Part shown: positions 1 to 5,071 of the stretch, piece after piece
Numbering within the stretch: the stretch's first letter is position 1
Layout: each line of letters begins with the position of its first letter
Notes under the pieces: generated by a model
Seen by the model: the letters and a program-made list of their open reading frames with translations, nothing else
Told to the model about the DNA's origin: nothing
The model's database searches: none
Program-made: the position numbers and the translations under genes
From: Gemmatimonadales bacterium
Lineage (GTDB): Bacteria > Gemmatimonadota > Gemmatimonadetes > Gemmatimonadales > GWC2-71-9
Assembly (NCBI GenBank): GCA_035943095.1
Contig: DASZCN010000101.1
Coordinates: 19,614-83,613, forward strand
Direction: 5' to 3'
DNA length: 64,000 nt

Positions 1-359
1 TGCTCCACGATCTCGACCGCGCTGTCGTTGCCAAACCGGAGCCGCCTTCCGGGCTTGAGCTTCCCGCCAGGGTGCCCCATCGCGAGCCACGTGCCGTCCG
101 GCAGCGGGCGCACGAGCAGGAGCTCCGCCGGGGCCCCGGTTTCTCTGTTTCCGTGTAGCCGCGCAGGGATCACGCGCGACACGTTGAGGACGACGACGTC
201 CTGCGGGTCCACCAGATCCACGATGGCACCAAAATCGAGATGCCGCAGTGTCCCGGTCGCGCGATCCAGCACGAGCAGACGGCTCCCGGCACGATCGGGG
301 AGGGGGTATTGGGCGATGAGCGCGGGGGGAAAGGAGTAATCGAAGTCGGAGGCGCGCAT
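1..359 (-). CDS. queA: S-adenosylmethionine:tRNA ribosyltransferase-isomerase QueA, N-terminal part (runs off window edge)
   Basis: Not in the ORF track because it is open at the window edge. Hand translation of the minus strand from ATG 359-357 gives MRASDFDYSFPPALIAQYPLPDRAGSRLLVLDRATGTLRHLDFGAIVDLVDPQDVVVLNVSRVIPARLHGNRETGAPAELLLVRPLPDGTW... It stays open to position 1. It matches the conserved QueA N-terminus (E. coli MRVTDFSFELPESLIAHYP...). Confidence 0.9.
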   Translation of the reverse strand, partial: MRASDFDYSFPPALIAQYPLPDRAGSRLLVLDRATGTLRHLDFGAIVDLVDPQDVVVLNVSRVIPARLHGNRETGAPAELLLVRPLPDGTWLAMGHPGGKLKPGRRLRFGNDSAVEIVE

Positions 360-365
360 CGGGCG

Positions 366-443
366 ATTGCGGATTTCGGATTGTGGATTGCGGATTGGAA
401 GGTCGGACGTCGAATCCGCAATCCGCATTCCGCAATCCGCAAT
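366..443. repeat. Long imperfect palindrome built from inverted blocks of about 4 heptamer repeats (GCGGATT / AATCCGC)
   Basis: Left arm 366-398 is attgcggatttcggattgtggattgcggattgg. The loop is 399-410. Right arm 411-443 is cgaatccgcaatccgcattccgcaatccgcaat. About 29 of 33 positions pair. It fills nearly all of the ruvB-stop (447) to queA-ATG (359) spacer. Confidence 0.85.
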
Positions 444-446
444 TGT

Positions 447-1484
447 CTAGCTGTCAAACATCGTCGGCTGTTCAGCGCTCCGGGGTGGCGTGAATCCAAA
501 ATGTTTATACGCCCCCGTCGTGGCGCACCGGCCGCGCGGCGTGCGGGCGAGGAACCCCTGCTGCATCAGGAACGGCTCGTACACCTCTTCGAGCGTGCCC
601 GGATCCTCGCCGACGGCGGCGGCGATGGTGGTGAGGCCCACGGGACCGCCTTCGAACTGCTCGATGATGGTCTTCAGGATGCGGCCGTCCATGTCGTCGA
701 GGCCGAACTCGTCGACGTCGAGCCGCTTTAGTGCTTCGGCGGCCACCTGTGCGGTGATCTTGCCGCCCGCTCGCACCTGGGCGTAGTCGCGCACGCGCTT
801 GAGCAGCCGGTTCGCGACACGTGGCGTCCCCCGGCTGCGGCGGGCGATCTCGGCGATCCCTGCGACATCGGTAGGAACCTCGAGGATCCCCGCCGAGCGC
901 GCGATGATCTGTGCGAGGTCGTCGGGCGGATAATAGGAGAGCCGCTCCACGAGGCCGAAGCGTGCGCGCATCGGAGGTGTGAGCAGCCCGAAGCGCGTGG
1001 TCGCGCCGATCAGCGTGAATCGCTCGAGGGCCATGGGGATGGTCTGCGCGTGCGCGCCATCGGCGATACGGACGTCCACCCGGTAGTCCTCCATGGCCGG
1101 ATAGAGAAACTCCTCGAGGGCGGGCCGGAGGCGGTGTACCTCGTCGATGAACAAGATGTCCCCGGCCTTGAGCGAGGTGAGCATGCCGACCAGGTCCCCG
1201 GGCCGCTCGAGCACGGGGCCCGACGTCGTCCGGATATTGACGCCGAGCTCTCTCGCCATGAGGAGTGCGAGCGTCGTCTTGCCGAGCCCCGGAGGGCCGA
1301 AGAAGAGGGCGTGGTCGAGCGGCTCGTGGCGCTGCTTCGCGGCATCGATCGCGATCTGCAGGGATTCCTTCACCTTGGCCTGGCCGACGAACTCGTCGAG
1401 GCGAGAGGGGCGGAGGGCGGCGTCGGTCAGGCGCTCGTCGGGGAGCGCTTCGGGGGTGGTGACCTGCGCGCGCGCCTCCTTCAC
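447..1484 (-). CDS. ruvB: Holliday junction branch-migration ATPase RuvB
   Basis: C-terminal 345 codons of track ORF 447..1889. Motifs seen: [19 protein letters not shown], Walker [10 protein letters not shown], Walker [11 protein letters not shown] place the start at GTG 1484-1482. The upstream part of the ORF is Arg-rich shadow over ruvA. Confidence 0.93.
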
Positions 1485-1663
1485 GCGGCTTTCCCCACCG
1501 GGCGTGCGCGCCACCGCACCGGCCGCGTGTCGCGCTCGAGTGCGTGCGCGGTGTGGCACGTGACGCATTCGTCCATCGCTCGCGTTGCTCCGTCTGGGAC
1601 GAGCATGCGGTTGGTCGAGCCGCAGCGCGTGCAGATCCACTCGGCCGTCGTCGCCATGGTCAT
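1481..1663 (-). CDS. Small zinc-ribbon protein (two CxxC pairs), 60 aa, function unknown
   Basis: Track [48 protein letters not shown]... has CxxC-x18-CxxC. About 52 of 60 codons end in G/C, like the flanking genes. Its ATG overlaps the ruvA stop (ATGA at 1660-1663). Its TGA overlaps the ruvB GTG (GTGA at 1481-1484). Confidence 0.6.
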
Positions 1664-2268
1664 CCCTGCGTGAGAAGTTGTAGCGCCCGGCGCACCAGCC
1701 CCTCCGTGTCGCCTGCGGCGTTGCCGCCGCCATCCGCCGCGAGTGCCTGCCGCAGCGCGCGGTCCGCCTCGACGGTGGAGTAGCCGAGCCGCTCGAGCGC
1801 GTGCAACGCGGCCTCCGAGGCGCCTCCGCCCGCCGGTTGAGCAAGACCGGCGGCCTCCTCAAACTCGCCGAGCTTGTCGGCCAGTTCAAGCGCCAGGCGC
1901 TCGGCCGTCTTCTTGCCGATGCCCGGCACCGACGCGAGGAGGGCGATGTTGCGCTCCTTCACCGCCCGCACTCCCCGCTCCACCCCCAGGGCCGACACGA
2001 GCGCGATGGCGATCTTGGGACCGATGCCCGTCACGCCAATGAGCCGCTGGAAGAAACGTCGTCCGGTTTCGTTCTCGAATCCGTACAGCGCCCAACCGTC
2101 TTCCCGCACCACGAGCTCGGTCGCGAGGCTCACGGCCGCCCCCACAGCGGGGAGTCGCTCCATCACACCGAGGGGGACGACGACTTCGTAGCCCACGCCC
2201 CCCGACGTGTCGATCATCACGCGATCGGCGTCCTTGGCAGTGAGCCGTCCCGAAACCCGGGCGATCAC
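1660..2268 (-). CDS. ruvA: Holliday junction DNA-binding protein RuvA
   Basis: C-terminal 202 codons of track ORF 1660..2646: [34 protein letters not shown]...[12 protein letters not shown]...[12 protein letters not shown] (HhH motifs). The GTG start at 2268 overlaps the ruvC stop (GTGA). Confidence 0.92.
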
Positions 2269-2741
2269 GAGCGGAGCATGTGTGCGAGCGCCACGGCCAC
2301 GCCGTCCGCGGCGTCGGCCGGCCTCGGCGCCTCCTTCAGGTGGAGCAGGTGAGCGACCACGCTGCCGACCTGCGTCTTGGCTGCGCCCCCGGCGCCCACC
2401 ACCGTCTTTTTCACCGTCGCGGGCGGGTATTCCGCGATGGTGATCCCCGCCTGCTCGGCGGCGAGCAGAATGACGCCCCGCGCGTGACCCAACACCAGCG
2501 TTGTATGGACGTTCTTGTGGTAGAACGCGTTCTCGAGCGCGAGCACGGCCGGCCGGTGGCGCGCGATCAAGTCCGCGATATGGGCGTGGAGCTCGCGCAG
2601 GCGGCGGGGCAAGGGGCTCCGCCCGGAGAAACGGATCACGCCGCACTCGACCAGCCGACCCATCCCGGAGGCGCCGTTCCCCGATTCGATCACGCCGTAG
2701 CCGGTGACCGACGTCCCGGGGTCGACGCCCAGCACCCTCAC
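2265..2741 (-). CDS. ruvC: Crossover junction endodeoxyribonuclease RuvC
   Basis: Sequence (M/V)RVLGVDPGTSVTGYGVIE... with ENAFYHKNVHTTLVLGHARGV. This is the typical RuvC fold and length (158 aa). Confidence 0.93.
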   Translation of the reverse strand: MRVLGVDPGTSVTGYGVIESGNGASGMGRLVECGVIRFSGRSPLPRRLRELHAHIADLIARHRPAVLALENAFYHKNVHTTLVLGHARGVILLAAEQAGITIAEYPPATVKKTVVGAGGAAKTQVGSVVAHLLHLKEAPRPADAADGVAVALAHMLRS

Positions 2742-2742
2742 G

Positions 2743-3492
2743 CTAGGCCGTCGCCGCCGCCAGCGCCTCGGCGTCGATGTCGAAGTTCGCGGAAACCCTC
2801 GCGACGTCGTCCATCTCTTCCAGCGCTTCGATGAGCTGGAGCAATCGTTTCGCGTCCTTGCCGTCCACCTTCACGGTGCTCTTGGGGATCATCGCGATCT
2901 CGGCGGTCTGGGTCGGGATCTGCTTGCCCTTGAGCCGCTCCGTAATCTGATGCAGCTGGTGCACCGGACCAGTAATAAGGAAGGCGTCGCCGTCGCGTAC
3001 CATGTCCTCCGCTCCCGCATCGAGCGCCACCTCCATGACCGCGTCCTCGGCGGCGCGGCCGGCATCCACCGTGACCTGCGCCTTGCGGTCGAACATCCAC
3101 GCGACGGAATTCGCCGCCCCGAGATTTCCTCCGTGACGTTGGAACACGTTGCGGATCTCGGCGACGGTACGGTTGGCGTTGTCGGTCGTCGCCTCGATGA
3201 AGATGGCCGCGCCCCCGGGCCCGTAGCCCTCGTAGGTGACCTCCTCGTACGTCACCCCCTCGAGCTCCCCGGTTCCTTTCTTCACGGCCCGCTCGATATT
3301 GTCGAGCGGCATGTTCTCGGTCTTGGCCGCGTCGATCGCCGTGCGGAGCCGGGCGTTGCCGCCGGGATCGCCTCCTCCCTGCTTGGCGGCGATCGTGATC
3401 TCACGGATGAGCTTGGTGAAGAGCGCGCCACGCCGCGCGTCGGTGACGGCCTTCTTCCGCTTGATCTGCTTCCATTTGCTGTGGCCGGCCAT
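2743..3492 (-). CDS. yebC: YebC/PmpR family DNA-binding transcriptional regulator
   Basis: MAGHSKWKQIKRKKAVTDARRGALFTKLIREITIAAKQGGGDP... is the canonical YebC N-terminus. I prefer ATG 3492 over the upstream GTG 3498. Confidence 0.92.
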   Translation of the reverse strand: MAGHSKWKQIKRKKAVTDARRGALFTKLIREITIAAKQGGGDPGGNARLRTAIDAAKTENMPLDNIERAVKKGTGELEGVTYEEVTYEGYGPGGAAIFIEATTDNANRTVAEIRNVFQRHGGNLGAANSVAWMFDRKAQVTVDAGRAAEDAVMEVALDAGAEDMVRDGDAFLITGPVHQLHQITERLKGKQIPTQTAEIAMIPKSTVKVDGKDAKRLLQLIEALEEMDDVARVSANFDIDAEALAAATA

Positions 3493-3534
3493 GGGCACCC
3501 AAGTCCAAAGTCTACGGCCTACAACTTACCACTT

Positions 3535-4407
3535 TCATCTATCCGGATCGAGCATGTCCTCGAACCGCATCCATCGCCGATAGAAATACAAGTCGACGAA
3601 TCCCGTCGGCCCATTCCGGTTCTTCAATACGATAAGCTCGGTCGCTCCCTCCACGCCGTGGCCCGGGTTGTACATCTCTTCGCGGTAGATGCCGAGGATC
3701 ACGTCGGCGTGCTGCTTGATGGCGCCGAGGTGCCCGAAGTCGTCGAGCGACGGCCGCGCGTTGGGGCGTTTGGCGTCGAAGCGCGGGAGCTGTGACACCA
3801 CGACGAGCGCCACACGGCGCTCGATCGCCAGGGCCTTGAGCCGTTGGAGCACGAGGGCGAGATCTTCGTCCTGTGTCGAGCGCGGGACGCCGCGGGGCGA
3901 CGGTACCAGCTGCAGGTAATCCACGACCACCAGTCCGAGCTGCGCGAGGGGATCGAGCCGCTCCGCGGTCGTCTCGAAGTCCCGCGCCGCGAGGGGGAGA
4001 GGGGAGAGCGGCAAGCCTCGCAGCCGCACCGCGGCGCCACCGATTCCGGCGCGCGTCTGGTCGTTGAGCTTCGCGGTGCGGAGCTCGTCCACGGCCACCC
4101 GCCCTTCGATCGCGAGCGCACGCTCCATGAGACGCTCATCGTCCATTTCGCCCGAGAAGAGCGCTACGCCGGTCCCCTGCTGCGCCGTCCGGAGGGCCAG
4201 TCCGAGTGCGAGGGCCGACTTGCCGGAGCCCACGTCCCCTCCCAGGACTACGAGGTCCCGTCTGCGCAGGCCGCCGCCCAGCATGCGGTCGATCGACGGA
4301 AACCCCGTGGGCACCGTGTCGCCCGAGACCTCGCCGGGACGTTGCTGATCCACGCGCTCGACCAGCGCCTCGACCGATGGGCGCTTCGGAAAACGGCGCG
4401 GGGTCAT
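3535..4407 (-). CDS. DnaB-like helicase C-terminal (RecA-fold) domain protein lacking the DnaB N-terminal domain
   Basis: Motifs seen: TGFPSIDRMLGGGLRRRDLVVLGGDVGSGKSALAL (Walker A), LVVVDYLQLV (Walker B), SQLPR...RPSLDDFGHLGAIKQHADVILGIYREEMY, LKNRNGPTGFVDLYFYRRWMRFEDM. Only about 55 aa precede Walker A. Start taken as ATG 4407. Confidence 0.8.
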   Translation of the reverse strand: MTPRRFPKRPSVEALVERVDQQRPGEVSGDTVPTGFPSIDRMLGGGLRRRDLVVLGGDVGSGKSALALGLALRTAQQGTGVALFSGEMDDERLMERALAIEGRVAVDELRTAKLNDQTRAGIGGAAVRLRGLPLSPLPLAARDFETTAERLDPLAQLGLVVVDYLQLVPSPRGVPRSTQDEDLALVLQRLKALAIERRVALVVVSQLPRFDAKRPNARPSLDDFGHLGAIKQHADVILGIYREEMYNPGHGVEGATELIVLKNRNGPTGFVDLYFYRRWMRFEDMLDPDR

Positions 4408-4411
4408 CGGC

Positions 4412-5071
4412 TCAGAGCGCCACCGCGACCGCCGCCCACCGTTCGCCGCCCACTCCGGACGCCCGCATCGCGACTTCGGCGACGAGATGGCGGCCATGGA
4501 GCGCGAGGTCGGCCCGGCTCAAACGGTCGCGCAATGTGGCGACCGTCAGGGGCTGGCCAGCGACAATCAACAGGAGATAGCGGCTCGCCGGAGGCGTGAG
4601 CGGCTTGGTGAGGGGCTCGGTGGAGGAAACAGGGCAGTAGCTGGGGTGGTCTGGATCGGACGTGGCGCAAAGCTCCTGCGGGAGGTGCCCGAGCCGCTCG
4701 ACGCGAGTGGGCACGCCGCGCTCCAAACCCGGCGGTAGCGCCGCGACCACGTCCACCGGCACGCTGTCCGCCGGCGGCATCGCCCGCAGCGCGAGCCTAT
4801 GGGTACCTGCCGCGAGCTGGGCGGGTTTGGGCTCCGCGGTCGCGAATCGGAGCGTCACACGTCCGTCCTCGACCTCGAGCAGCGTGACGAACGCCGCCCG
4901 GGCGAGCTCCACCGTCACGCTATCGGGGACGCCGGGCTTGGCCGCGAGCGGTGTGATGCGAGGGGCGTAACTCAGATCGGGCCCGAGCACGTTCAGGGGC
5001 TGTGGATGGGCACAGCCGATCCATGGTAGGCACGCTGCGTAGGCGACGAACCGAACCAAATGTCCCCGCAT
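4412..5071 (-). CDS. Hypothetical secreted protein or lipoprotein
   Basis: The N-terminal hydrophobic segment ends ...CLPWIGC, a weak lipobox. GC3-rich. The stop is 4 nt upstream of the DnaB-like start. No family recognised. Confidence 0.55.
   Translation of the reverse strand: MRGHLVRFVAYAACLPWIGCAHPQPLNVLGPDLSYAPRITPLAAKPGVPDSVTVELARAAFVTLLEVEDGRVTLRFATAEPKPAQLAAGTHRLALRAMPPADSVPVDVVAALPPGLERGVPTRVERLGHLPQELCATSDPDHPSYCPVSSTEPLTKPLTPPASRYLLLIVAGQPLTVATLRDRLSRADLALHGRHLVAEVAMRASGVGGERWAAVAVAL

Follow-up and report, generated by a model that had tools for sequence, protein, structure and literature searches.

A conserved zinc-ribbon-type cistron between ruvA and ruvB of Gemmatimonadales

What occupies the space between ruvA and ruvB in a Gemmatimonadales genome, and does it take part in the processing of Holliday junctions? 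The question is raised by a 64,000-nucleotide (nt) stretch of contig DASZCN010000101.1 from a Gemmatimonadales bacterium, called the window throughout, in which the gap between the two genes is filled by a 60-codon open reading frame (ORF). The ORF, here named ZR, encodes cysteines at residues 11, 14, 33 and 36, arranged as CxxC-x18-CxxC. Its ATG overlaps the ruvA TGA in an ATGA at 1663-1660, the ruvB GTG overlaps the ZR TGA in a GTGA at 1484-1481, and the ruvC TGA and the ruvA GTG are joined by a GTGA at 2268-2265. G or C occupies the third position of 52 of the 60 codons (0.87), with values of 0.84-0.92 in the flanking genes. An earlier note on this DNA had described the ORF with its overlaps on both sides, a codon composition as in bona fide genes, and the ruvC-ruvA coupling, and it is accurate in every detail. 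The note had also proposed that ZR is an accessory subunit of the resolvasome. From this proposal a genuine, conserved and undescribed small zinc-ribbon gene can be retained, and what speaks for resolvasome membership is the gene neighbourhood.

Taken alone, an ORF of this size in DNA of 68% G+C is no evidence of a gene. Chance ORFs are frequent here, with 40 of at least 40 amino acids (aa) overlapping the first 4.5 kb of the window, and it is comparative data that decide. These come from 95 ZR-carrying loci, the window and 94 relatives, of which an earlier subset of 81 comprises the window and 80 GTDB species representatives. The ORF is intact in 81/81 loci of the first set and in 95/95 overall, and the frame disruption in relatives that the earlier note had considered is not encountered. 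A protein search with ZR retrieves 164 homologue clusters at 62-87% identity, all of 54-80 aa, and a profile search built on more distant members retrieves 1395 clusters. In the ZR frame the pairwise ratio of nonsynonymous to synonymous substitution rates (dN/dS; 3240 pairs) is 0.19. It reaches 1.9-2.2 in the two shifted sense frames and in two antisense frames, and the antisense frame that shares third codon positions with ZR gives 0.35. Family proteins are 52-62 aa long and carry two invariant CxxC knuckles, with all four cysteines unchanged in 38 close and 16 distant members. The invariant set in the alignments consists of E8, W9, C11, C14, N18, R19, D31, C33, C36 and W51; H40 and P48 are nearly invariant, and the variable parts are the loops at 22-30 and 41-46 plus both termini. 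Median identity to the window protein is 77% for ZR, 71% for RuvA, 75% for RuvC, 80% for YebC and 89% for RuvB, so ZR is conserved about as well as its neighbours. Judged from its sequence evolution, ZR is thus a genuine protein-coding gene under purifying selection.

The view that ZR is no separate gene, but a chance ORF in G+C-rich DNA or an N-terminal extension of RuvB, draws on the abundance of chance ORFs, on a ruvB frame that is open from 1889 down to 447, right through the spacer, and on database records. Some RuvB entries are 365-398 aa long, and annotators passed over ZR in 5/7 public-assembly loci that had been selected through RuvB. The comparative evidence nevertheless refutes this view, and the chance we leave it is negligible. 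Relative to ruvB, ZR is in frame 1 at 60 loci, in frame 2 at 24 and in frame 0 at 11, and the ruvB frame is among the shifted frames with a dN/dS of about 2, against 0.19 in the ZR frame; the spacer is therefore not the RuvB N-terminus, an outcome that the earlier note had held open. The NCBIfam RuvB model begins only at residue 16 of the GTG-1484 product, and where relatives have no ZR, the equivalent residue (M..R.EITTPE.LP) is the first of RuvB and follows the ruvA stop directly. In 15 genomes, moreover, a gap of 16-135 nt follows the ZR stop before ruvB starts. Apparent RuvA-ZR or ZR-RuvB fusions (P0144, P0149, P0152, P0160, P0161) are arginine-rich, out-of-frame translations of frameshifted, error-laden contigs.

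The database records reflect a systematic under-annotation of the family. Since the ruvB frame stays open in G+C-rich DNA, ruvB calls are extended upstream through ZR, and some records (P0353, P0403, P0359) swallow it in this way. In the five RuvB-selected loci where ZR is intact and uncalled (Table 1), an apparently empty ruvA-ruvB gap of about 160 nt appears instead. Members that are called go under the names "hypothetical protein" or "zinc ribbon domain-containing protein" in their sources, or bear the spurious labels RPC12/L40E.

Within the 95 loci, ZR has ruvA directly upstream and ruvB directly downstream in 94, the 95th being a contig of 608 nt, which answers the question, posed in the earlier note, of whether homologues always sit between the two genes. 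The order yebC-ruvC-ruvA-ZR-ruvB is kept in 80/80 GTDB loci. The placement is constant across RuvA divergence down to 39% identity, and it is unchanged where genes for tetratricopeptide-repeat (TPR) proteins replace queA after ruvB (L089, L090, L094). The most divergent members, at 33-57% identity, hold the same position (P0158 at 33%, P0138, P0132, P0130 and P0256). In most relatives, ZR is coupled to ruvA and to ruvB by overlapping or nearly abutting stops and starts. In 71/94 loci an in-frame ATG or GTG lies in a 4-nt overlap with the end of ruvA, and in 22 further loci the ZR start lies no more than 10 nt past the ruvA stop. On the other side, a ruvB start could be placed in 94 loci, and in 45 of these it is an ATG or GTG in a 4-nt overlap with the end of ZR.

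A second in-frame ATG at 1657-1655 lies 2 bases past the ruvA stop. It is present in every close relative, and the overlapping ATG/GTG start is absent in some of them (L004, L006 and L010, where ruvA ends in TAA). Because the ATG at 1657 is always kept in close relatives and the overlapping start is not, the product may be 58 aa long rather than 60. With 8 R and 1 K against 3 D and 3 E, the protein is basic, and its basic residues lie mostly in the C-terminal third.

In 8/80 genomes a multi-hairpin element of 108-135 nt lies exactly between ZR and ruvB, and ZR itself is never interrupted. The element is found in L003 (4187-4304), L006 (4190-4324), L012, L018, L019, L024, L034 and L066. It contains CCCAGGCTGAAGCCTGGG, CTCGGC...GCCGAG and CACTCTTCAGAGTG, folds at -45 to -80 kcal/mol, and looks like a repeat of the repetitive extragenic palindromic (REP) or miniature inverted-repeat transposable element (MITE) type.

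The AlphaFold2 model of ZR, computed with the family alignment, has a predicted local distance difference test score (pLDDT) of 87.3 and consists of five strands at 4-10, 17-23, 28-32, 39-44 and 51-55. The CxxC motifs are located at the hairpin turns between strands 1/2 and 3/4. As modelled, the protein would have a zinc-ribbon layout with an extra C-terminal strand carrying RPVRW, and its four cysteines would hold one zinc ion. Foldseek returns only weak matches, zinc ribbons being the best of them: LysW, archaeal ribosomal proteins and Shiftless, which stand at E 0.4-0.9 and template modelling (TM) scores of 0.45-0.59 in the PDB and are not significant, and also the thioredoxin-2 zinc finger; against a viral library, E stays at or above 0.03. 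A PDB sequence search with the ZR family profile gives nothing significant. Scans of ZR and distant members with Pfam, NCBIfam, PHROGs and PADLOC return only sub-threshold generic zinc-ribbon and cytochrome noise. ZR reaches at best 17.2 bits in Pfam, where the cut-off is 25.6, and 14.9 in NCBIfam, where it is 32, and none of 16 distant members falls below E 2e-4. The assignments Zn_ribbon_Nudix, Vps36-NZF-N, DUF2387 and Zn_ribbon_8, and the Joint Genome Institute (JGI) labels RPC12/RpoP and L40E, all lie below curated cut-offs and were rejected. A c-type cytochrome was likewise rejected: C36 is followed by H, R, G or K in family members, and the Pfam Paired_CXXCH matches are sub-threshold. 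With its histidine not kept across the family, the apparent CXXCH is not a haem site. The fold class is thus ordinary, and the family is undescribed and without a Pfam or NCBIfam model. Our literature search found no paper on a gene between ruvA and ruvB, nor on a zinc-ribbon partner of RuvAB.

The family is narrow in distribution and not universal in Gemmatimonadales. An exhaustive HMMER search of 1.84 billion representatives at the 50% identity level gives only 42 hits, about twenty of them full-length members; fragments and frameshift artefacts make up the rest, along with a few multi-ribbon proteins that are unrelated. All named sources but one are metagenome-assembled genomes (MAGs) labelled Gemmatimonadales, Gemmatimonadota, Gemmatimonadetes or Gemmatimonadaceae, the lone exception being a member labelled Gaiellales by one source. 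Loci were also sampled through RuvB alone, to avoid ascertainment bias. All seven RuvB-selected loci from public assemblies carry an intact ZR. Among 80 RuvB-selected metagenome loci, 57 carry it and 17 were scored as without it (57/74 informative), the upstream sequence of the other 6 being too short. Two of these 17 are to be read differently: L119 has too little upstream sequence, and L150 is ZR-positive at a shorter ORF cut-off. Of the remaining 15, 14 fall with two uninformative loci into one RuvB clade (85% bootstrap), which by exact-sequence look-ups consists of Gemmatimonadales MAGs including Gemmatimonadetes bacterium GWC2_71_9. The fifteenth, L095, is sister to the ZR-bearing L083 on RuvB. 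Its ruvA and ruvB are separated by an 82-nt spacer (about 1521-1602) that is G+C-rich, with a C9 run and a cysteine-free ORF of 28 codons; it looks like a separate loss, or an assembly problem. A RuvB tree rooted on P. aeruginosa RuvB nests the ZR-less lineage within the ZR-bearing ones at 50% bootstrap and gives ZR-bearing monophyly 25%, which does not settle whether ZR was ancestral and then lost or was gained later.

What, then, might the protein do? Our best guess, believed about as much as it is doubted, is that ZR is a dispensable, lineage-specific zinc-ribbon cofactor of RuvAB. Strict synteny and predicted translational coupling are what points to a RuvAB-related role. From established knowledge of overlapping stop and start codons, ZR would be translated by termination-reinitiation, and this coupling would keep its synthesis at a fixed ratio to that of RuvA and RuvB. 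As its neighbourhood suggests, the protein may then be a small adaptor or modulator that works with the branch-migration motor RuvAB, either at Holliday junctions or at reversed forks. A conserved face (AEW, NR, D, H, RPVRW) could dock on RuvB or RuvA, and/or the basic C-terminal part could contact DNA. An auxiliary factor is proposed rather than a core subunit because the sister clade and one further lineage manage without it. ZR is inherited together with the ruv genes, as ruvA-ZR-ruvB in 94/95 loci and in distant members, but it is not present wherever RuvABC is, being a narrow family that is missing between ruvA and ruvB in the GWC2_71_9-like clade and in L095. A more demanding version makes ZR a zinc-dependent third component of RuvAB in most Gemmatimonadales, produced at a fixed ratio through coupling and binding the RuvB hexamer or RuvA so as to change loading, directionality or hand-over to RuvC; this version is tentative and, on balance, doubtful.

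Several observations weigh against a role with RuvAB. In the GWC2_71_9-like clade ruvA runs directly up to or into the ruvB start with no ZR between them, and since neither this clade nor L095 has the gene there, RuvAB works without it in close relatives. RuvA and RuvB of the carriers are complete and canonical, which leaves nothing missing for ZR to replace. A comparison of RuvA, RuvB and RuvC finds only three alignment positions that separate ZR-bearing from ZR-less lineages. In the ZR-less clade Q replaces RuvA W59 (in REDGW; about 2094-2092 in the window), R replaces RuvA G34 and E replaces RuvB Q147; the positions do not cluster and may be plain lineage markers. There is thus no sign of a co-adapted ZR interface, a result that says little and counts slightly against intimate contact. 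No true fusion of ZR with RuvA, RuvB or RuvC occurs among the 1.84 billion representatives. Tight ZR-ruvB coupling is not obligatory, because eight genomes hold the structured element of 108-135 nt there. Conserved membership in an operon is also no proof of membership in a complex, yebC, queA and tgt being conserved neighbours as well.

This last point leads to the main rival, in which ZR is a real zinc-ribbon protein that merely travels with the operon and has a function unrelated to Holliday-junction processing: a general nucleic-acid-binding, ribosome- or translation-associated factor, or a regulator, co-transcribed like yebC, queA, tgt, yajC, def and fmt. The wider cluster is indeed rich in translation-related genes, with yebC upstream and queA-tgt-yajC-def-fmt downstream, ribosomal zinc-ribbon proteins are among the weak fold and profile matches, and both the missing co-adaptation signal in RuvA and RuvB and the existence of a ZR-less sister clade fit it. 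An unrelated passenger, however, would be expected to move or to turn up elsewhere sometimes, and among the 95 loci ZR is never found outside ruvA-ruvB. It stays put where the genes after ruvB change, and the 64-kb window holds no paralogue elsewhere. We consider the passenger explanation possible, though unlikely. It is also conceivable that the act of translating a short cistron sets the RuvA:RuvB ratio or the expression of ruvB, the peptide itself having little or no function. The stop/start overlaps on both sides of ZR would suit such a device, as would the tail after RPVRWxA, whose length and sequence vary and which coincides with the stretch immediately preceding the ruvB start. A dN/dS of 0.19, a confident predicted fold and ten invariant residues, including four cysteines and two tryptophans, are hard to reconcile with it, as a pure spacer would not keep a metal site. 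The variable ZR-ruvB gap in 15 genomes and the direct ruvA-ruvB coupling in ZR-less relatives speak against it too, and we regard it as quite improbable.

Compared with the ruvAB and ruvCAB operons of E. coli, P. aeruginosa and T. thermophilus, RuvC, RuvA and RuvB are full-length and canonical here, and their overlapping ruvC-ruvA-ruvB order is the common one. The usual ruvA-ruvB junction is found in the ZR-less Gemmatimonadales sister clade, whereas the carriers add a fourth conserved cistron. To our knowledge, the described RuvABC resolvasome has no zinc-ribbon component, and what is new here is a ruvCAB operon with an added conserved zinc-ribbon cistron.

The closest fold match is the amino-group carrier LysW (PDB 3wwl, 3vpb; Foldseek probability 0.82-0.89, TM 0.5-0.6, E 0.4-0.9, not significant), which is likewise about 55 aa long and all-beta, with two CxxC knuckles at hairpin turns. 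LysW depends on a conserved acidic tail for its carrier function. ZR has no sequence similarity to it, its C-terminus is basic and variable, and its neighbours are ruvA and ruvB and not genes of lysine or arginine biosynthesis. An identity as LysW or another amino-group carrier was rejected on the lack of a conserved acidic C-terminal tail and of a lysX/argX-type neighbourhood.

Small Cys4 modules also occur on hexameric ATPases, as in the N-terminal zinc-binding domain of ClpX, the N-terminal zinc ribbon of MCM, the zinc finger of RadA/Sms and the zf-HIT partners of RUVBL1/2, and they mediate adaptor, DNA or ring-ring contacts. The modules of ClpX, MCM and RadA/Sms are fused to the motor (the zf-HIT proteins are not), whereas ZR is a separate polypeptide. 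No homology of ZR to these motor-attached modules was detected, the MCM matches in the fold search standing at E 6-9, and the likeness is one of analogy only. The same applies to the gyrase inhibitor YacG, which binds zinc, is about 60 aa long and has at its C-terminus a conserved segment with a tryptophan, a possible docking element; YacG matches ZR in neither sequence nor structure, and its gene lies outside the operon of its target.

RuvAB(C) is a textbook recombination machine that is thought to be complete, and an extra coupled cistron offers a testable lead to a lineage-specific cofactor. Should ZR prove to be a third component, it would be the first dedicated small accessory protein of bacterial RuvAB. 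The ZR-less sister lineages provide natural controls, and comparative and genetic tests are straightforward. Independently of function, a small-protein family of at least 1395 sequence clusters is documented that has no Pfam or NCBIfam model and is usually skipped by gene callers. The carriers are soil-abundant and barely studied bacteria.

In the window, the row yebC-ruvC-ruvA-ZR-ruvB-queA is tightly packed within the first 3.5 kb (Table 1). The yebC TAG ends 1 base ahead of the ruvC GTG, and in relatives ruvB is followed by queA-tgt-yajC-def-fmt. Full-length Pfam and NCBIfam matches identify all neighbours of ZR. NCBIfam TIGR00084 covers residues 1-197 of the 202 in RuvA, whose three domains are all recognized; in RuvB the P-loop, lid and winged-helix domains are recognized, and comparison with the PDB places the protein near RuvB proteins of solved structure (E 1e-120).

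Table 1 Genes of the yebC-queA row in the window, and intact ZR genes left uncalled in RuvB-selected loci
Feature	Locus	Position	Strand	Remarks
yebC	window	3498-2743	minus	TACO1/YebC family; first gene of cluster; Pfam TACO1_YebC_N and Transcrip_reg
ruvC	window	2741-2265	minus	158 aa; GTG start; Pfam RuvC 1.7e-43 and NCBIfam RuvC
ruvA	window	2268-1660	minus	202 aa; GTG start; TGA 1662-1660; Pfam RuvA_N, HHH_5, RuvA_C
ZR gene	window	1663-1481	minus	60 codons and TGA (1483-1481); alternative start 1657 giving 58 aa
ruvB	window	1484-447	minus	345 aa; GTG 1484-1482; Pfam RuvB_N, AAA_lid_4, RuvB_C
queA, 5' part	window	359-1	minus	cut by window end; Pfam Queuosine_synth 1.3e-27
ZR, uncalled	L088	2340-2504		intact
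ZR, uncalled	L090	2337-2501		intact
ZR, uncalled	L091	1343-1504		intact
ZR, uncalled	L092	1340-1504		intact
ZR, uncalled	L093	1340-1501		intact

Upstream of yebC, a terminator-like hairpin at 3608-3594 (minus strand) is followed by a T-rich run, which suggests that the yebC-ruvCA-ZR-ruvB unit begins downstream of it. A scan of the window locus finds no terminator-like site between ruvA, ZR and ruvB, and an Rfam scan of 1-4600 finds no RNA family in the ZR region. The hairpin lies near the 3' end of a DnaB_C-domain gene at 3535-4497, whose 320-aa product gives no match to a DnaB N-terminal domain.

A further hairpin, at 362-440, lies in the gap that separates the ruvB stop (447) from the queA start (359); in it about four copies of GCGGATT face about four copies of AATCCGC. 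As RNA it has a minimum free energy of -45 kcal/mol (z = -6 relative to shuffles). The heptamer repeat is unique within the window, and Rfam gives only sub-threshold microRNA-like matches to it. This ruvB-queA hairpin may act as a terminator or attenuator, or it may be a REP-like element.

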